From assembly GCF_050920415.1 (NCBI RefSeq), contig NZ_CP169309.1: a stretch of 64,000 nucleotides of DNA; one strand, written 5' to 3'. Shown piece by piece: positions 17,036 through 47,499 of the stretch. The position numbers were made by a program, and so were the translations under genes. The stretch is from Escherichia coli (lineage in GTDB: Bacteria; Pseudomonadota; Gammaproteobacteria; Enterobacterales; Enterobacteriaceae). Positions within the stretch are counted from its first letter, which is position 1, and every line of letters starts with the position of its first letter. Below the pieces are notes generated by a model that did no database searches, was not told where the DNA came from, and was given only the letters and a program-made list of their open reading frames with translations.

Positions 17036-17980
17036 ATGGGTCTTGATAATATAGGTTCTGTTGTCAATCGCTTCTCTGGTTGGCCATCAAATGATCCTCT
17101 AAAAACAGATAACGAATCAATGACATCACCCGTGACTGTGCAGGTAATAAAGTTGATTGCCGCCATCCTTGACCCACATCGGATAGTCGTTGGTATCGAT
17201 ACACTCTATACAACGCAGCGCAAAACATTTACCTCAGAGGGTCAACAACTCATTGAATCAGCATTGAAAACACTTAATGTGATGAATTTAAATAACCTGG
17301 AAACAGATCGCGATGAGGAGGGTAACTATCTGGCTTTTGGATATAACGTTGACACTCCTGACAGAATAACCGTTTCTGCTTATAATGAAAAAAAACCTTT
17401 CTGTTATGGCCAATGTCTTTTAATACAGGATGAAGAACCAGATTTATTTAACCTGGTAAAAATTAAAACCTTTGAAGCCAGGCATAATTATGTTTCTAAA
17501 TTGATGAGCGATCCGGAATTTATGTTTAAATTCAGTTATAGCGCCCAACAAAATAGATTAGAACCTCATCTTCTGGTTCCCACTTATTTCCCTCTGAAAA
17601 CAAACCAACCGGTTACGCTAGAGGATTTACTGATACTTTATCGTTTCTTTAAAATGAATGGCGATTTTAATATATTAACATCAGATGAATACATGAGTAT
17701 CATGACACCTCTGATGAAGTGTGAGCGTAGTGTCCACGACCATAACAGGTATGTGACGGGCAAAGATGCTCTTCTTCTGGACAATCCTCCGTCTGGTAAC
17801 CAGATATATTTCCATATTTCCCCTGACGAATCAGCAACACTTGTCCTTTATTTTTCAGACAATAACCTTGAATCCTTCGTCTTTGAAAATGATATTCCGA
17901 GCCAGTATCGACATTTCAAAATGTTTACCAATTTAGCACTAGTTATTGATCAGTTAACCGACGCCAATCAAATACTTTAA
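17036..17980 (+). CDS. Hypothetical protein, 314 aa, acidic, no recognised domain
   Basis: Clean ORF with GAGG RBS 8 nt upstream of the ATG; strongly AT-rich codon usage (N/K/I/F/Y-rich) unlike the flanking core genes; no signal peptide or TM segment evident. Confidence 0.6.
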   Translation: MGLDNIGSVVNRFSGWPSNDPLKTDNESMTSPVTVQVIKLIAAILDPHRIVVGIDTLYTTQRKTFTSEGQQLIESALKTLNVMNLNNLETDRDEEGNYLAFGYNVDTPDRITVSAYNEKKPFCYGQCLLIQDEEPDLFNLVKIKTFEARHNYVSKLMSDPEFMFKFSYSAQQNRLEPHLLVPTYFPLKTNQPVTLEDLLILYRFFKMNGDFNILTSDEYMSIMTPLMKCERSVHDHNRYVTGKDALLLDNPPSGNQIYFHISPDESATLVLYFSDNNLESFVFENDIPSQYRHFKMFTNLALVIDQLTDANQIL

Positions 17981-18059: not shown

Positions 18060-18482
18060 ATGACACCATCTCAGCTCTCTTTTAATACTCTTCCTGTCAA
18101 TGCAACATGCACTTCAGAGATAACAGTAAACACACAAAAATTCTCTGACATCCTCTACTCAGTGGGGTATTCCCTAAAGGATCTGGCTTATCTGAGCAGA
18201 TGTCTGGCATCATTACACCCAACACTCGCCAAAAACATTTATGAAACGGAAAATCTCAGCGATCAAAAATTACTTTATATAGATTGCCGTAGTACAAATG
18301 AAATCAAGATAAATATATTTTTGGGTCAAAAAAGAGAAGAATTAATCGAAATTAGTTCTGATACAGTCATTTTTTCGATACTGTCTTCATTGATTGACTC
18401 AGCTATTTCTGAACATCGACATCAAATCACCGTTAATGATTCAAATAATTCTGAACTATTTTATGAGGATTATACTGATTAA
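18060..18482 (+). CDS. Hypothetical small acidic protein, 140 aa
   Basis: ORF 80 bp downstream of the previous gene, same strand and same AT-rich composition; about 21 acidic versus 10 basic residues; Ser/Thr/Asn-rich N-terminus. Confidence 0.5.
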   Translation: MTPSQLSFNTLPVNATCTSEITVNTQKFSDILYSVGYSLKDLAYLSRCLASLHPTLAKNIYETENLSDQKLLYIDCRSTNEIKINIFLGQKREELIEISSDTVIFSILSSLIDSAISEHRHQITVNDSNNSELFYEDYTD

Positions 18483-19024
18483 ATCCACTCTGTGCGAACC
18501 TGTCCTGCATTTATGCCAGAAGTATTAGAATCTTTGCTTAACGTTACTCATACAGTAGCACCTTCATGTGTCTCTCTTTTTTACGAACAATCAAAAGAAC
18601 TAACAAGGGGCATAATTCGTATAAATTATTAACCATTTGTTATATTCAACATTTTTTTACATTAAGCAGAGATGAATTGCAGTGAAATTCAAGTTAAATT
18701 TTACGAAATGTATTACTCATGGCTAAAAAATCTTCCCAAAATGCAAATTAGAAGTTGATCACAATTATCTCAATCCATCAAATCAAGATAATTTTAAAAA
18801 TTTAACATCAATGACAGCGGTTGGCATAACACACTGAATTAAAATGAAAATTTAAAAAACAATTTTTAAACAATCATTTCCCGAAAGACATTTTGAAAAT
18901 AGATCAATTGCAACATTACGGTCAGATAAAGACACTCCTCTGATATTAAACCTGTGCCGTTATGAACGGCCATAAATACGACGTGTGTAACTTAATTTAC
19001 TCTCTGTCTTACAAAGGATTACCC

Positions 19025-23570: not shown

Positions 23571-24941
23571 ATGGCTCGTTCTTTTAAAGTCTTATCGCCA
23601 ACGGCAATCCTCGGGTATGGATTCCCGGAAGAGAGCTTCCGCAAAGCGATGGCAGAATCGCCCGATCTGATCGCCGTTGATGCAGGATCTTCCGATCCAG
23701 GTCCCCACTACCTCGGGGCAGGCAAACCGTTTACCGATCGCGCAGGGGTCAAGCGCGATCTGCGCTATATGATCACCGCAGGCGTGCAAAATAATATACC
23801 GGTGGTGATCGGAACGGCCGGCGGTTCTGGTGCCGCTCCACACCTGGAGTGGTGCCGAGAAATAATTCATGAGATTGCCCGGGAAGAGCGCCTCGCGTTC
23901 TCGATGGCGCTGATCCCGGCAGACGTTGACAAAGCCATCGTCCACCAGGCGCTGGATAACGGCAAAATCACGGCGCTGGATTTTGTCCCGCCGTTAACCC
24001 ACGACTCGATTGACGAAAGTACGTATATCGTCGCGCAAATGGGCATCGAACCCTTCCAGCGGGCGCTGAAAGAAGGAGCGCAAGTGGTGCTGGGCGGGCG
24101 CGCTTACGACCCGGCCTGCTTTGCTGCGCTTCCGATCATGCAAGGCTTTGATGAAGGTCTGGCACTGCATTGTGGGAAAATCCTTGAATGTGCGGCAATC
24201 GCTGCAACACCCGGCTCAGGCTCTGACTGTGCGATGGGCATCATTGATGACAACGGCTTTACGCTGAAGACGTTTAATCCGAAGCGTAAATTTACCGAAA
24301 CGTCAGCTGCTGCACACACACTGTATGAGAAATCCGATCCCTACTTTCTGCCAGGACCTGGCGGCGTGCTAAACCTGAAAGGTTGCACATTTAAAGCGAT
24401 CAATGATGGCGAAGTGTACGTCAGCGGTTCTAAGCATGAAGAAACGCCCTATGCCCTGAAACTGGAAGGTGCGCGGCGGGTGGGTTTCCGCTGTTTGACC
24501 ATCGCCGGAACGCGCGACCCGATCATGATCGCCGGGATCGATAACATCATCGATGAAGTCAAAACCAGCGTTTCGCGTAATCTGTCCTTAGACGATGACA
24601 GCATTCGCATCAATTTCCACCTGTACGGCAAAAACGGGGTGATGGGTGACCATGAACCGATGCAAACTGCCGGGCATGAGCTGGGGATTGTCCTTGATGT
24701 AGTTGCACCGACCCAGGAAATTGCCAACAGCGTTTGCTCGCTGGTGCGCTCTACCATGCTGCACTACGGCTATGAAAACCGCATCGCTACCGCAGGCAAC
24801 CTGGCGTTCCCGTTCTCCCCTTCTGATATCCAGGGCGGGCCGGTATACGAATTTTCCATATATCACCTGATTGAAGCCAACGACGCTCTGCGTTTTGATT
24901 TCCATATTGAACAGGTGACGCCAGAAGGAGTTCAGGCATGA
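23571..24941 (+). CDS. Uncharacterised protein, probably DUF1446 (AtuA-like) family
   Basis: 456-aa soluble protein inside the operon, 4 bp after mal; family assignment is from memory of the AtuA-like family and is tentative. Confidence 0.5.
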   Translation: MARSFKVLSPTAILGYGFPEESFRKAMAESPDLIAVDAGSSDPGPHYLGAGKPFTDRAGVKRDLRYMITAGVQNNIPVVIGTAGGSGAAPHLEWCREIIHEIAREERLAFSMALIPADVDKAIVHQALDNGKITALDFVPPLTHDSIDESTYIVAQMGIEPFQRALKEGAQVVLGGRAYDPACFAALPIMQGFDEGLALHCGKILECAAIAATPGSGSDCAMGIIDDNGFTLKTFNPKRKFTETSAAAHTLYEKSDPYFLPGPGGVLNLKGCTFKAINDGEVYVSGSKHEETPYALKLEGARRVGFRCLTIAGTRDPIMIAGIDNIIDEVKTSVSRNLSLDDDSIRINFHLYGKNGVMGDHEPMQTAGHELGIVLDVVAPTQEIANSVCSLVRSTMLHYGYENRIATAGNLAFPFSPSDIQGGPVYEFSIYHLIEANDALRFDFHIEQVTPEGVQA

Positions 24942-25255
24942 AACAGTCAATTGTCTCACTGGCGCAAGTCATTCGTTCGAAAAATGCCGGACCTTACGAA
25001 CTGGTTTTAGATATTTTATTTAAAACGAAAGAAAACTATGAGCGAGTAAAATCATCAGGGCAATTAACCCCAGAACTGATTGCGCGCTTATATCATGTTG
25101 AACCTGACTTTATTCATCGTATTGTCTGGTTTGATCCTTCTAACGCAGTAAAAATTGTCATGCCACGAGATATTATCTCCGGGAATGTAGGTGACAATGA
25201 TGTCTATGGCGCACAGCAACATGCACCTTTATTAAATATGAGTTTCGATTTGTAA
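24938..25255 (+). CDS. Small uncharacterised protein, probably DUF4387-like partner of the preceding gene
   Basis: 105-aa ORF overlapping the upstream stop by 4 nt (ATGA coupling). Confidence 0.5.
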   Translation: MKQSIVSLAQVIRSKNAGPYELVLDILFKTKENYERVKSSGQLTPELIARLYHVEPDFIHRIVWFDPSNAVKIVMPRDIISGNVGDNDVYGAQQHAPLLNMSFDL

Positions 25256-25341
25256 AAATCCGAACACTTTTAGCCAACTGACATCCCGTCACTTATTGCA
25301 GCTCAACACTTCAGCTATTTGTAAGGTTGTTATAGCAGGTA

Positions 25342-25367
25342 GATGCCTGAATCTCTATTCAGGCATC
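25342..25367 (+). promoter_or_regulatory. Perfect 11-bp inverted repeat (stem-loop or operator) between the DUF4387-like gene and the transporter gene
   Basis: gatgcctgaat-ctct-attcaggcatc; no downstream T-run, so not a classic intrinsic terminator. Confidence 0.4.
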
Positions 25368-25415
25368 CACTTCTCCTGATTCTGATTTATCGCCGTGCAC
25401 CTGATGGAGGAAAAA

Positions 25416-26696: not shown

Positions 26697-26803
26697 GGGG
26701 GATCTTAAGCAATCAGAAGCCAATGACTACGCATTTTTATAAGCCGGATCATGAAGTTAGACGGCAATTAAGTAACACTAACGTTTAAGGTGAAAAGTGA
26801 AAT

Positions 26804-29071: not shown

Positions 29072-29105
29072 CTGCGCCTGGCATCCCGCCAGGCGCAGGT
29101 TTTAC
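29072..29105. terminator. Bidirectional hairpin terminator between the cobA-like and LysR genes
   Basis: ctgcgcctgg-catcccg-ccaggcgcag with flanking T/A runs; lies between convergent stop codons. Confidence 0.6.
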
Positions 29106-30007
29106 ATCTCCTGCGGTACGACCGATTTCGCCAGCAACCATTCACGAAATTGCTGCAAGTGCGGAGAGTCAGACTTCTCTTCCTGCCACGTCATAATAAA
29201 ACGATTACCGGTACGAATAGGCACATCACAGGGGATCACCATATCGCCACTATCCAAATCATGTTGAATAGCGAACCGTGGTAACAGCGCCACGCCGAGA
29301 TTAGAGCGCACGGCGGCAATCAGCATTGAAAGCAAATCGAAACGTGGTCCGTTATTGACCAGCGGACTGCTAACGCCAGATAAAGCAAACCACTCTTCCC
29401 AGCCAGTAATACGGGTGCTTTGATGCAGAAGTGGTAACTCAGTAAGCAGTTCTGCCACTGACAGTTTTTGATCGGACATTGCAAGCAAACTGCCGCTGCA
29501 TACCGGCAAAATCTCCTCTTCAAAGAGATATTCTACTTCCGCCCAGGGCGCGCAAAAATTTTCGCGCATAATGACAGCATCGTACTCCCGATTAAGAAAA
29601 TCGCCGTTATTAGCTAAAGAATGAATATTAACAATAATATCGGGATGTAACTTTGTGAATTCATGTAAATTTGGGATTAACCAGTGGGTACTAAACGTAG
29701 GATTAACGGCAAGTTCAATAACCTGAACCGTAGGCTGCCAGGTCATAATCGTATTGGTATCGCGTTCCAGCTTATTTAATGTTTCTTTTACTATCCCCAG
29801 GTAATACTTCCCTGCATCATTAAGAAAAATGCGTTTTTTAGAGTGTGAAAATAACGGAGTATGTAAAAATTCCTCCAGCGCACTTACTTGTCTGAATACA
29901 GCACTTTGGGTTAACGCTAACTCCTCAGCCGCTCTGGTATAACTTTCATGTCGTGCGACGACCTCAAAAGTCACCAGCAGCTCCGTTTTAGGTATTTTTC
30001 CTCGCAT
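29102..30007 (-). CDS. LysR-family transcriptional regulator
   Basis: N-terminal helix-turn-helix (YTRAAEELALTQSAVFRQV) plus co-inducer-binding domain; start chosen at the internal Met (MRGKIP...), the track ORF extends to 30037. Confidence 0.8.
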   Translation of the reverse strand: MRGKIPKTELLVTFEVVARHESYTRAAEELALTQSAVFRQVSALEEFLHTPLFSHSKKRIFLNDAGKYYLGIVKETLNKLERDTNTIMTWQPTVQVIELAVNPTFSTHWLIPNLHEFTKLHPDIIVNIHSLANNGDFLNREYDAVIMRENFCAPWAEVEYLFEEEILPVCSGSLLAMSDQKLSVAELLTELPLLHQSTRITGWEEWFALSGVSSPLVNNGPRFDLLSMLIAAVRSNLGVALLPRFAIQHDLDSGDMVIPCDVPIRTGNRFIMTWQEEKSDSPHLQQFREWLLAKSVVPQEM

Positions 30008-30596
30008 AATGCCGTCCGTGAAAAAATAACAACTCAAAAATTATTTTATAAAAAACAGTAGCACTAATGAATATCATAATTCAAATAAACAAACCAGTCA
30101 GCTATATGTCTAACCAGGAAAATAAAGTGACAATAATCCTAAAACAGGAATTTCACCTCAGTTATCCGCATGCAATACTTTAAAGCTATTATTGCAAGAA
30201 TATTATTCATATACATGAATATACTCTAAATAAGTCAAGTTGCAGGAAGGGAACAAATAATGAATTTCCAGAAGCTTACATAAGTAAGTGACCTGGGTGA
30301 GCGAACATCGATGCAGCACATGCAACTTGAATTATGACAAGTATACAATGATAAATTTATATACCCTATGTTATATATTATCTATGTCCGGTTAAATTGA
30401 ATGAGTCATAGCCTTAAAAGACTTCACAAAAGATAATTCCTCTTTAACAATAAGCCAGATTTACCACTTGTAAAACTTGCTATCGCCACATACACTACGC
30501 GCGTTTTCTTTCCCTTTTGCTGGCTGCTGACCGGAAAGACAAAATTACCCTCGCAATACAGGGGGTTGTTTAACGTCTATATTTCAGGACAGCGTT

Positions 30597-31994
30597 ATGC
30601 ATCATCTTTTAAGGCTTGATAAAGCCTTTCTGCGCAAAGGGATCCAACTTTCCCGTGCCAACAATATTGTTTCATTATGTCGTCCATCAGGAGCCAGTGC
30701 CCGCGTACTGCTGCCGGACGAACTGCCGCTGGAAGAAAAAGCAGTGACACAACTGCTTGATTTTGCAGAAGTGAAGATACCAGGCCATCCAGGTTACGTA
30801 CGCCAGACGTGCGCGACGCCAGATTTTCATCCCGGCAATGGCGTCCCCGTTGGCGCGGTGGTGGCCTCAACGCCGGATTTAGTCATTCCCGCCGCCATCG
30901 GCACCGATATTTCTTGTGGCATGCGGCTGCTGACGACCGGATTAACACTTGAGCAAGCCGAAGCGCATAAAGACGTCATCGCTCAGCGGTTAACGCAAGT
31001 GCTACTGCAAAATGAGCGCGATGTTCCGTTATCCGCACAGGCGTTCACCGCGCTTTTTGATGGCGGACCGGCAGATTGCGTGTCGACCTTGCCATCAGCA
31101 GGTCTCTGGACACGCACGAATATCCCCCGAATGGTACAAGAGATTGACCGCTGCATTGGGCTTAACGAGCATAACAGTCATTCGCGTTATGCCCCACCCG
31201 CCCTGCTGGCAACGGACCGCGCATTACTCCGCGATCCTTGTCTGGGTACGCCGGGTTCAGGTAATCATTTTATTGAACTTCAGGTCGTTGATAGCGTGGT
31301 TGATCGCCATGTAGCCTGGCAACAAGGGCTGAAAACAGGCGATATTGTGGTGATGATCCACAGTGGATCGCGAGATGTTGGCTTTTACGTCGGAAGACGC
31401 TGGATGGATCGCGCCCGTGCTGAATGGCCCACCGGACATAAACATCCACAAAGCGGGTTATATGGTCTGGCAGGCGGACTGGCGGAGGAATATCTACAAG
31501 CGATAGGAATGGCGGCGCGTTACGCGTGGTTAAATCGCGTGACAATTGCCGAAATGGTGCGCGTATGTCTTGCCAATCTCTTTCATCAGGACAATTCGCA
31601 TCTGGTGGTGGATGTGCCACATAACATCATCCTTCGCGAGCATGAAATGAATATTCATCGCAAAGGCGCAACACCGGCACGAGTGGGCAATCTGGCGTTA
31701 ATCCCTGGTTCAATGGGCGATTATTCGTGGCTTGCGGTAGGTTGCGGCAACCCGGAGTGGCTGTGGTCATGCAGTCACGGAGCAGGACGCAGCCAGCGTC
31801 GGCAGGCCATGCGCTCACGCGCGACTGAAGAGTCAACGCTGCCGTGGCAATGCGTCACATTGCGCGAAGAACGACGTCTTGAAGAAGCGCCAGCGGCTTA
31901 TAAAGATATTGGTCCGGTTATCGAAGCTCAACAAGAAGCCGGATTAATTCAGCCAGCGGTCAGATTTCGACCGTGGTTAACGTTTAAAGCATAA
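30597..31994 (+). CDS. RtcB-family RNA ligase paralogue (3'-phosphate/5'-OH ligase)
   Basis: 465 aa with the RtcB signature blocks IPAAIGTDISCGMRL, GSGNHFIEL, MIHSGSRDVG, IPGSMGDYS and CSHGAGR; about 30-aa N-terminal extension relative to K-12 RtcB. Confidence 0.8.
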   Translation: MHHLLRLDKAFLRKGIQLSRANNIVSLCRPSGASARVLLPDELPLEEKAVTQLLDFAEVKIPGHPGYVRQTCATPDFHPGNGVPVGAVVASTPDLVIPAAIGTDISCGMRLLTTGLTLEQAEAHKDVIAQRLTQVLLQNERDVPLSAQAFTALFDGGPADCVSTLPSAGLWTRTNIPRMVQEIDRCIGLNEHNSHSRYAPPALLATDRALLRDPCLGTPGSGNHFIELQVVDSVVDRHVAWQQGLKTGDIVVMIHSGSRDVGFYVGRRWMDRARAEWPTGHKHPQSGLYGLAGGLAEEYLQAIGMAARYAWLNRVTIAEMVRVCLANLFHQDNSHLVVDVPHNIILREHEMNIHRKGATPARVGNLALIPGSMGDYSWLAVGCGNPEWLWSCSHGAGRSQRRQAMRSRATEESTLPWQCVTLREERRLEEAPAAYKDIGPVIEAQQEAGLIQPAVRFRPWLTFKA

Positions 31995-32091
31995 AAAAGG
32001 CCATCATATGATGGCCAACCATGTCGAAACCGACAGCCCTTCGCCATTCCTGTAGAGGGAAGCGGCGAGGGCTATTTCTTATTACAAGTAT
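31993..32091 (-). ncRNA. sdhX: 3'-UTR-derived sRNA SdhX (RybD) with the sucD terminator
   Basis: About 97 nt directly after the sucD stop, ending in the ggccatcat-atgatggcc hairpin plus U-run (31993-32016); assigned from position relative to sucD, sequence identity to K-12 not verified. Confidence 0.45.
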
Positions 32092-45532: not shown

Positions 45533-46579
45533 ATGCTGAGCAGAGAGGACTTTTACATGATAAAGCAAATGCGCCAGCAAGGTGCGTATATTGTTGATAT
45601 TGCCACTCAGGTTGGTTGCTCTGAGCGGACTGTCAGACGGTACCTGAAATACCCGGAACCTCCGGCCAGAAAAACACGCCACAAAATGGCCAAACTCAAG
45701 CCGTTCATGGACTATATCGACATGCGTCTGGCTGAGAATGTCTGGAACGGCGAGGTCATCCTGGCGGAAATCAAAGCGATGGGTTATACCGGTGGCCGTT
45801 CCATGTTGCGTTACTACATCCAGCCCAAACGTAAGATGCGGCCATCGAAGAAAACGGTTCGCTTCGAAACTCAGCCCGGTTACCAGCTACAGCATGACTG
45901 GGGAGAAGTTGAGGCTGAGGTTGCCGGGCAACGATGCAGGGTTAACTTCGCGGTTAATACGCTGGGGTTCTCACGTCGCTTCCATGTCTTCGCGGCACCA
46001 AAGCAGGATGCTGAACATACCTATGAGTCACTGGTCCGCGCCTTTCGCTACTTCGGCGGCAGCGTGAAAACCGTGCTGGTCGATAACCAGAAAGCCGCAG
46101 TGCTGAAAAATAACAACGGGAAGGTGGTGTTCAACTCCGGGTTCCTGCTGCTGGCCGATCACTATGGCTTCCTGCCACGGGCCTGCCGTCCACGAAGGGC
46201 CAGAACCAAAGGTAAGGTGGAACGGATGGTGAAATACCTCAAGGAAAACTTCTTCGTCCGGTACCGCCGGTTCGACAGCTTCGCCCATGTTAATCAGCTA
46301 CTGGAGCAGTGGATGGCTGACGTTGCCGACAGGCGGGAACTTCGCCAGTTCAGGCAGACACCGGAACAGCGCTTCACGCAGGAACAGGTGCATCTGCAGG
46401 CGCTGCCAGGTACGGACTTCGATACCAGCTACTTCGATATCCGTCATGTCTCCTGGGATGGCTATATCGAGGTTGGCGGGAACCGTTACAGCGTGCCGGA
46501 AAGCCTGTGTGGCCAGCCGGTATCAATACGGATCTCGCTGGATGATGAACTGCGATTTACAGTAATGAGCAACAGGTAG
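45533..46579 (+). pseudogene. istA: IS21-family transposase istA, C-terminally truncated
   Basis: MLSREDFYMIKQMRQQGAYIVDIATQVGCSERTVRRYL... with HTH; ORF ends about 40 codons before the expected overlap with istB at about 46701. Confidence 0.7.
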
Positions 46580-46700
46580 CATCGCACCGTCTCTGTTCGG
46601 CTGTATACGGCTGGCAGACCGTGCCGGAGCATCACGCCCCACTCTGGCAGCAGGTCAGTCAGGTGGAACACAGGCCGTTGAGTGCCTATGAGGAGCTGTT

Positions 46701-47499
<799 letters not shown>

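Follow-up and report, generated by a model that had tools for sequence, protein, structure and literature searches.

What controls an RNA ligase gene that lies back to back with a LysR-type gene at the edge of a catabolic island? What is known of RtcB in bacteria comes from two settings: the rtcBA operon, which the sigma-54 activator RtcR controls, and the pairing of RtcB2 with PrfH in ribosome repair. The question is raised by a 64-kb stretch of an Escherichia coli chromosome (contig NZ_CP169309.1; hereafter the window, from whose first letter all unlabelled coordinates are counted). It carries an rtcB-family gene that is transcribed divergently from a gene for a LysR-type protein. The original prediction, made from the letters of the window, took the LysR protein to be the dedicated regulator of the ligase gene. 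As first framed, the locus is of modest interest, an annotated accessory paralogue beside an unrelated regulator; a conserved leader upstream of rtcB adds to it. The reading that we favor, at a probability of about 0.72, is that the LysR protein serves the neighboring island and that the RtcB is a stand-alone enzyme of a third class, under its own conserved leader RNA.

An intact RtcB of a third class

The rtcB gene (30597-31994, + strand) encodes a predicted 3'-phosphate/5'-OH RNA ligase of 465 residues, a long form of the family. The product matches the Pfam family RtcB (PF01139) over residues 63-464 with E = 1.5e-94, and a PHROG tRNA-splicing ligase with 1.1e-67. Residues D104, C107, N223, H224, H255, H342 and H394 (of the HGAGR motif) are invariant in an alignment of 54 sequences, K-12 RtcB1 and intact E. 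coli RtcB2 included. The metal-binding and guanylylation residues align with the catalytic residues of the Pyrococcus horikoshii enzyme (PH1602). The AlphaFold2 (AF2) model has a predicted local distance difference test score (pLDDT) of 95.2, and Foldseek matches it to 4DWQ (an RtcB-GMP/Mn2+ structure) and to 1UC2 with a template-modelling (TM) score of 0.82. The N-terminal 60 residues, which are missing from K-12 RtcB, form part of the modelled fold. The signature blocks, the metal-binding Cys and His positions and the HGAGR region that had been recognized in the open reading frame (ORF) are thereby confirmed, and careful alignment disclosed no loss of a catalytic His or Cys.

For rtcB, the ratio of nonsynonymous to synonymous substitution rates (dN/dS) comes to 0.154 in comparison with the other E. 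coli allele and to 0.079 with an 87%-identical orthologue, and RtcB is therefore under purifying selection. The gene is intact, complete in its catalytic residues and under selection. The proposal of an intact, probably active orphan agrees with the complete active site and the fold. By analogy with other RtcBs, the enzyme would be expected to carry out GTP/Mn2+-dependent sealing of 2',3'-cyclic-phosphate or 3'-phosphate ends to 5'-OH RNA ends. A 398-residue form of the protein, annotated from an internal start at residue 68 (MRQTCATPDFH...), is found in a cluster of 189 member sequences (P0004); some strains may therefore have a disrupted N terminus or a start that was called differently.

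The protein is 30% identical to RtcB1 and 28% identical to RtcB2, which are 27% identical to one another. It scores under the cut-offs of the NCBIfam models PRK09588 and PrfH-coupled TIGR03073 (release_rtcB; 168.9 bits vs a cut-off of 271.8). It therefore represents a third, equidistant class of RtcB in E. coli. Among 5426 complete E. coli genomes, the sample for all prevalence counts given here, RtcB1 is present in 4850, full-length RtcB2 in 2674 and the 465-residue RtcB in 289.

The enzyme shares its family and catalytic residues, and presumably its sealing chemistry, with RtcB1 of the RtcR-controlled rtcBA operon. Yet RtcB1 has 408 residues, whereas the 465-residue form resembles the archaeal and Thermus enzymes in carrying a subdomain at the N terminus and an insertion in the center. 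The contexts differ as well, in that the present gene is without rtcA, rtcR and a sigma-54 promoter and has a leader that is missing upstream of K-12 rtcB. Searches by tblastn with RtcA, RtcR and PrfH yielded no rtcA, rtcR or prfH anywhere in the 64 kb (E>0.2), in agreement with the absence of these partners noted earlier. No sigma-54-like site (TGGCAC-N5-TTGCW, up to two mismatches) is found on the + strand of 30008-30596. RtcB2-PrfH is a ribosome rescue and repair module (PMC9304027, PMC9223846). RtcB2 and the present RtcB are both accessory E. coli paralogues that are not under RtcR, but the latter is only 28% identical to the former, falls below the TIGR03073 cut-off and lacks a prfH gene both in the window and at the 86 homologous loci. 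The best sequence and fold matches are the long-form RtcBs of P. horikoshii, Thermus thermophilus and human (E ~1e-41 to 1e-43, TM 0.82), which have the same N-terminal subdomain. They differ from it in sequence (22-27% identity in the fold-search alignments), and the context here is a bacterial, stand-alone one. The PADLOC defence models gave zero matches.

Stand-alone genes are the rule in this clade

We confirmed 590 relatives among species genomes and kept 80 species loci (86 in some neighborhood scans); the kept loci span Beta- and Gammaproteobacteria, cyanobacteria and myxobacteria. Full-length members of 55-67% identity occur in Burkholderia, Variovorax, Janthinobacterium, Comamonas, Pseudomonas aeruginosa, Gilliamella, Snodgrassella, Xenorhabdus and Pectobacterium, and members of 40-49% identity in other Pseudomonas, Massilia, cyanobacteria and myxobacteria. 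Neither rtcA nor prfH lies within 8 kb of the clade gene in the 86 loci, and the lack of a standard partner thus extends to the relatives. Unbiased clustering of the adjacent ORFs disclosed no conserved neighbor: no family is present in more than nine loci, and those few are generic families. An iterative profile for LysR-type transcriptional regulators (LTTRs) detected a directly adjacent, divergent LTTR in one of the 80 species loci, and it is not an orthologue of the E. coli LysR protein. Thus, the orphan arrangement is the normal state of this RtcB clade. No hut, glm or mal genes are found near the homologues in the 80 other species, and no archease gene turned up in the neighborhood clustering (no search was aimed at archease).

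Three arrangements in this sample deserve mention. The stand-alone gene of Gilliamella (L021, L026, L036) lies 1-6 kb from an rtcR-rtcB1 locus, and a Comamonadaceae metagenome-assembled genome (L016) has an RtcB1-like gene in tandem, 321 bp upstream, with the leader between both genes; RtcB paralogues therefore sometimes cluster. A protein of ~1047 residues is encoded near distant RtcB homologues at eight loci of cyanobacteria and myxobacteria (L064, L065, L077-L079, L081, L088 and L092), mostly downstream and on the opposite strand. This protein could be a partner of RtcB in these lineages only.

A conserved leader upstream of rtcB

The last 108 nt before the rtcB ATG are ~93% identical among the two E. 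coli haplotypes with rtcB (classes A and B, below) and a relative (L005) whose RtcB is 87% identical, vs 81% for the coding sequence. We designate 30506-30596 (+ strand) as a candidate structured 5' leader, based on its 93% identity to L005, a covariance model and covariation. It consists, from the 5' end, of a P1 hairpin (30507-30513 with 30533-30539) with a loop ending in the invariant GCUGCUG (30523-30529), an extended hairpin made of P2 (~30538-30546 with 30566-30577) and P3 (30548-30552 with 30561-30565), a U-rich stretch, and a CAGCAGC-like box at the ribosome-binding site. The box (CAGGACAGC, 30585-30593) lies over the Shine-Dalgarno sequence AGGA and is complementary to the GCUGCUG loop. 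The upstream regions of distant homologues show the same layout, headed by a sigma-70-like promoter. In E. coli, a putative weak sigma-70 promoter (30468-30496, + strand) can be read from the sequence, with -35 TTGTAA at 30468-30473, a 17-nt spacer and -10 TACACT at 30491-30496, matching the consensus at 8 of 12 positions. The simple scans flag neither an rtcB promoter nor a terminator-like P3 at the leader in E. coli, and the same holds for Burkholderia. By the same simple scans, Gilliamella and Pectobacterium have a 10-of-12 promoter (TTTACA-17-TAGAAT) 6-9 nt before the leader, the position of the putative E. coli promoter, and P3 with its U-tract is scored as terminator-like.

In most Proteobacteria the 3' strand of the pairing between loop and box ends 0-5 nt before the AUG, and in cyanobacteria it overlaps the AUG (AUGCAGCC). 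Long variants of the leader (L017, L019, L020 and L074 of Variovorax; L031, L032, L052) are extended by one or two hairpins that follow P2 and precede the ribosome-binding site, with the CAGCAGC box still beside the start codon. The upstream regions of K-12 rtcB1 and of E. coli rtcB2 are without the heptamer.

The leader corresponds to no Rfam 15 family: the window gave no match at E<=1, eight loci gave only tRNA elsewhere, and two leaders at E<=10 gave only chance-level miRNA and snoRNA matches. The name rtcB is absent from the main text of those large discovery papers on noncoding RNA that were consulted. The leader thus looks like an apparently undescribed candidate for a cis-regulatory RNA. 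Pseudoknot-type translational riboswitches (preQ1-II, SAM-II) and protein-binding mRNA leaders resemble it in being short 5' leaders whose stems covary, whose loops contain invariant nucleotides and whose 3' strand pairs over the ribosome-binding site. The rtcB leader differs from riboswitches of the preQ1-II and SAM-II type in having no similarity to an Rfam 15 family and in going with an RNA-repair enzyme, not a metabolic gene. Resemblances of the CAGCAGCC box to the 530-loop region of 16S rRNA and to the RNA of the signal recognition particle, and of the GCU repeats to sites cut by MqsR, were dropped as untestable speculation.

Covariation of the leader stems

Of the 50 species loci analysed, 49 have GCTGCTG in the interval 55-95 nt upstream of the start, compared to an expectation of 1.3 in 80 (P ~6e-66). 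The P1 arms occur in no fewer than 29 complementary versions, among them UUUCCUG/CAGGAAA, GAGACG/UGUCUC, UCUUCG/UGAAGA, CCCUCU/GGAGGG and GCGCGC/GCGCGC. Complementarity fell when partners were swapped between sequences (z=7.7 for P1, z=3.8 for the loop-box helix). In the alignment anchored on the heptamer and the box, 76.8% of cells are paired, compared to 60.9% after shuffling. The covariation score is 0.400, vs 0.155 for shuffled alignments (reached by 0/500) and 0.09-0.13 for slid ones. A negative control with the register one column off had 38.7% of cells paired. The first pair flanking the loop-box helix covaries (UA 11, GC 7, GU 4, CG 3, UG 2), and the 3' strand of the helix varies only to G-U-compatible bases, at two positions.

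A covariance model was built in three rounds from a seed of six bee-gut sequences (Gilliamella and Snodgrassella). The six-sequence model found the leaders of Xenorhabdus and Pectobacterium, and two more rounds led to most of the Beta- and Gammaproteobacterial leaders. The last model (R3) was run over 1.46 Mb on both strands. Exactly upstream of a clade gene were 55 of its 58 matches at E<=5 and all 50 of those at E<0.2. In the R3 alignment, compensatory changes are present at 21/21 pairs of P1, P2 and P3, with 86-91% of cells paired, and covariation over all 29 pairs, loop-box included, amounts to 0.468, vs 0.168 shuffled and 0.06-0.15 slid. At the level of aligned sequences, these results demonstrate conservation of the leader and covariation of the P1-P3 stems across phyla.

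The leader of the window was found by R3 at 30506-30597 with 27.0 bits and E=2.9e-4, where the E-values are rough and the training set included a relative 93% identical to the E. coli leader. That relative was itself first detected weakly (E ~0.5-1.2) by a model with no Escherichia sequence in its training set. Intermediate leaders score 35.7 bits (L010) and 37.1 bits (L005).

Several observations weigh against the structure or its reach, and they are gathered here. Both ways of aligning, by anchoring on heptamer and box or by fitting to the covariance model, lean towards the proposed structure, and the leader sequences are mutually related. RNAalifold found no structure on a plain MAFFT alignment of 30 leaders; the stems were misaligned there, which is why the anchored and covariance-model alignments were used. 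Tests of the P1 and loop-box helices locus by locus, against shuffles and random windows, were weak (median p of 0.10 and 0.16, respectively), and only the pooled and partner-swap tests were convincing. The loop-box helix taken alone has 71.5% of cells paired vs 68.4% shuffled, with covariation of 0.190 vs 0.153 (0/500) and cores that are nearly invariant, and in the model-fitted alignment its pairing drops to 60.5%. The E. coli leader, at 27 bits, stands barely above the best of 100 metagenomic decoys with P1 arms and heptamer (25.6 bits with R3). Its identification therefore rests mainly on where it lies, on its being better conserved than the coding sequence, and on the intermediate leaders with which it forms a continuous series. 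As for the gene itself, RtcB has been lost from ~74% of the E. coli that bear the island, and so is dispensable there.

Three simpler searches were abandoned. A core-only register finder for the loop-box pairing failed on account of the 3-nt periodicity of GCUGCUG, which gives alternative registers. A crude pattern of P1-like helix, heptamer, box and start codon was unspecific, with 329 matches. A metagenome scan for CTTCC-N3-9-GCTGCTG-N0-5-GGAAG gave 120 chance matches, none followed by an RtcB gene, and was uninformative on other genes with such a leader.

How the leader may act

The upstream element could instead act as DNA, as an operator or promoter element for some transcription factor, with the P1 arms as its inverted repeat. 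P1 is indeed a DNA palindrome near the -10 box, and the heptamer and the box are invariant in sequence, as protein-binding sites often are. However, three separate stems stay paired through many sequences, with G-U pairs included, which would be meaningless in DNA. The element lies downstream of the predicted -10 box, and no regulator gene is conserved with the RtcB clade. We regard the DNA explanation as unlikely.

Under the reading of a leader RNA, the locus would comprise two unrelated units placed side by side: the LysR gene for the glutamate-fermentation island, and rtcB as a self-contained RNA-repair module. The rtcB gene would be transcribed from its own sigma-70-type promoter, with the mRNA probably starting near 30503. 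In the default fold, GCUGCUG in the P1 loop would pair with the box at the ribosome-binding site or start codon and occlude it. The P2/P3 hairpin, which resembles an intrinsic terminator in AT-rich lineages, might additionally attenuate transcription in some lineages. Synthesis of RtcB would then stay low until a signal remodels the leader; candidates are a small molecule, a protein such as RtcB itself, a competing RNA or cleavage of the loop. Control of rtcB in cis by occlusion of the ribosome-binding site, possibly with attenuation, is the most likely mode of action.

A more ambitious version is that the leader is an undescribed sensor RNA that makes this RtcB class self-regulating, from Proteobacteria to cyanobacteria. 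It could be a riboswitch for a metabolite tied to RNA damage or to RtcB, for instance 2',3'-cyclic nucleotides, GTP/GMP or Mn2+, or a decoy whose GCUGCUG loop is cut or bound upon RNA damage, which would free the ribosome-binding site. We advance this version tentatively, as a possibility with the odds against it.

The LysR gene belongs to the glutamate-fermentation island

The LysR-type gene (29102-30007, - strand) encodes a GcvA-like protein of 301 residues. Its ORF extends over 29102-30037 from a TTG, and RefSeq and all 301-residue orthologues start at the ATG at 30007. The protein scores 221 bits with the NCBIfam GcvA subfamily model, under the cut-off, and its dN/dS is 0.035-0.05. The island occupies the interval between cydA and sucD, where K-12 has mngR-mngAB. 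All on the + strand, it contains two hypothetical genes, glmS, glmL, glmE, the gene for methylaspartate ammonia-lyase (mal), genes for AtuA, a DUF4387 protein, a dicarboxylate/amino-acid symporter and the class I fumarase FumD, and cobO. The LysR-type gene (-), the gene for the RtcB family protein (+) and sucD (-) follow. The B12-dependent catabolic island that had been noted next to rtcB is therefore real, with rtcB at its edge.

The 10-kb glmS-cobO block with the LysR gene alongside is present in 1117 of the 5426 E. coli genomes, and RtcB in only 289 of these. LysR orthologues (57-100% identity) are kept in the glutamate mutase/methylaspartate cluster of four genera (E. coli, Salmonella, Yersinia and Yokenella), mostly without RtcB nearby. 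The Salmonella orthologue (85% identical) adjoins cobO and fumD. That of Yersinia enterocolitica (63%) is divergent from a glm-mal operon, followed by fumD-cobO, and that of Yokenella (57%) is divergent from an operon for B12 uptake and glm-mal. All three loci are without RtcB. An LTTR is drawn as a member of the enterobacterial glutamate-fermentation cluster by Kronen & Berg 2015 (PMC4682846, Fig 5); it is the same gene in the same island, at the same place beside cobO (cobA) and fumD, with no substantive difference from the gene in the window. Thus, the LysR gene belongs to the glutamate-fermentation (methylaspartate) island and not to rtcB.

The LysR protein would presumably act as regulator of the adjacent glm/mal island, its exact targets being equally presumptive; those to be expected would be the stretches upstream of glmS (~18483-19024), gltP (~25256-25415) and fumD (~26697-26803). 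The upstream regions of LysR, glmS, gltP and fumD from the four genera were compared for a common LTTR-type dyad. None of the 5-mer dyads recurs in three or more of the 13 regions, and the T-N11-A motif is uninformative in AT-rich DNA. The two annotated hypothetical genes between cydA and glmS (17036-17980 and 18060-18482) are followed by a 542-bp AT-rich gap before glmS, which is the most likely place for the main promoter of the island and a LysR site. In each of E. coli, Salmonella, Yersinia and Yokenella, the gene for methylaspartate ammonia-lyase is directly followed by the AtuA/DUF4387 pair (23571-25256 in the window). The island shows no genes for citramalate lyase.

Haplotypes of the LysR-rtcB junction

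The spacer between the two genes (30008-30596) has a GC content of ~0.32-0.35. The divergent layout and AT-richness described earlier hold, and the length given then (590 bp) is corrected to 589 bp with the LysR start at the ATG at 30007. Three haplotypes of this junction are found in E. coli. In class A, LysR adjoins rtcB, as in the window; the full 2.9-kb query is present in 138 genomes. In class B (145 genomes), an 8.7-kb hut operon (hutU, a permease gene, hutD, hutI, hutG and hutH) lies between LysR and rtcB, and rtcB is divergent from hutU. Class C comprises ~830 genomes, O157:H7 included, and has LysR followed by sucD, with no rtcB. The class C spacer of O157:H7 strain 8368 (L003:6907-7572) keeps the LysR-hutH intergenic region, fragments of hutH (residues 445-490 and 312-331) and fragments of rtcB (residues 375-394 and 451-462); class C therefore derives from class B by deletion. 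The order of class B is also that of the relative with 87% RtcB and 89% LysR identity, in which another gene lies downstream of rtcB.

Going from LysR towards rtcB, class A is homologous to the other E. coli haplotypes as far as 30025 (18 bp upstream of the LysR start codon), and BLAST homology resumes 108 bp upstream of the rtcB ATG; direct alignment hints at weak similarity to ~30465. By these breakpoints, an AT-rich filler of 463 bp (30026-30488) is specific to this haplotype, full length in 144 of the 5426 genomes, and other E. coli have the hut operon or hutH and rtcB remnants in its place. The hut operon of E. coli LD67-1 (L002:340-9108) matches the junction at 30025/30489 of the window. 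Given the hut operon in class B and in the 87% relative, and its remnants in class C, the adjacency of LysR and rtcB is secondary: as read from these alignments, the rearrangement replaced an ancestral hut operon with the 463-bp filler. Within the filler, 30211-30345 is a copy of a dispersed intergenic repeat of ~135 bp. Its copies are 82-85% identical and occur at a median of six places per genome in 5425 of the 5426 genomes; judged by the ERIC1R/ERIC2 primer sequences, it is putatively ERIC/IRU-like. On the other side of rtcB, the region from 31951 on is kept in E. coli without rtcB, and from ~31990 on in Salmonella. A palindromic GC-rich hairpin (31999-32016) between the convergent rtcB and sucD genes was scored by the terminator scan as the sucD terminator.

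Alternatives weighed against the gene and its neighbors

These haplotypes bear on the possibility that E. coli rtcB is a dispensable passenger heading for loss, without current function, and that the leader is inherited baggage. RtcB is absent from ~74% of the island-bearing genomes, which have deletion remnants instead; the N-terminally truncated form of 398 residues is annotated in the cluster of 189 member sequences, and the rtcB promoter is weak by consensus. Against this stand the dN/dS values (0.154 between E. coli alleles, 0.079 with the 87% orthologue), the intact catalytic residues, and a leader more conserved than the rtcB coding sequence. The passenger explanation is, in our judgment, improbable.

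The explanation with which this locus was first approached, that the LysR-type protein is a dedicated regulator of the divergent rtcB through the shared spacer, fares somewhat worse. Divergence across 589 bp is the usual arrangement of an LTTR and its target, and the two genes adjoin in ~140 E. coli genomes. However, ~830 E. coli genomes keep LysR with the glm/mal island in the absence of rtcB, and so do Salmonella, Yersinia and Yokenella. In 145 E. coli genomes and in the 87%-identical relative, LysR and rtcB have the hut operon between them, and the spacer sequence beside LysR differs from that of other haplotypes. An adjacent divergent LTTR, which is not an orthologue, is present in only 1 of the 80 clade loci. 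The LysR protein travels with the glm/mal island, and its role as dedicated regulator of rtcB, which was not borne out, appears very unlikely. That RtcB is tied to neighboring amino-acid catabolism (hut or glutamate fermentation), for example through a substrate other than broken RNA, is the least probable of all and hardly credible: rtcB is divergent from hutU in class B and in the 87% relative, and is always at the island edge in Escherichia, but hut, glm and mal genes are not found near the homologues in 80 other species, and the RtcB active site is complete.

Elsewhere in the window, the RefSeq annotation of an identical strain places an IS21-family element (ISEc62, its istB frameshifted) at ~45533-47498, within a fimbrial usher gene that lies downstream of gltA and is interrupted by it.

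Implications

E. coli is classically Hut-negative. The hut operon and the island would together give a route from histidine through glutamate to mesaconate in 145 of the 5426 genomes. The inference from gene neighborhood is corrected in that LysR becomes a candidate regulator of glutamate fermentation (in some strains, of histidine-to-glutamate fermentation) in pathogenic E. coli, and not of RNA repair. The RtcB described here would make up a third, widespread, stand-alone class beyond rtcBA/RtcR and RtcB2-PrfH. Its leader of ~95 nt, with an invariant loop and a ribosome-binding site that is probably occluded, offers a concrete handle on the signal to which this class responds, and may define a new class of regulatory RNA tied to RNA repair. 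If the sensor-RNA version holds true, an RNA element would directly switch on the synthesis of an enzyme that repairs RNA.

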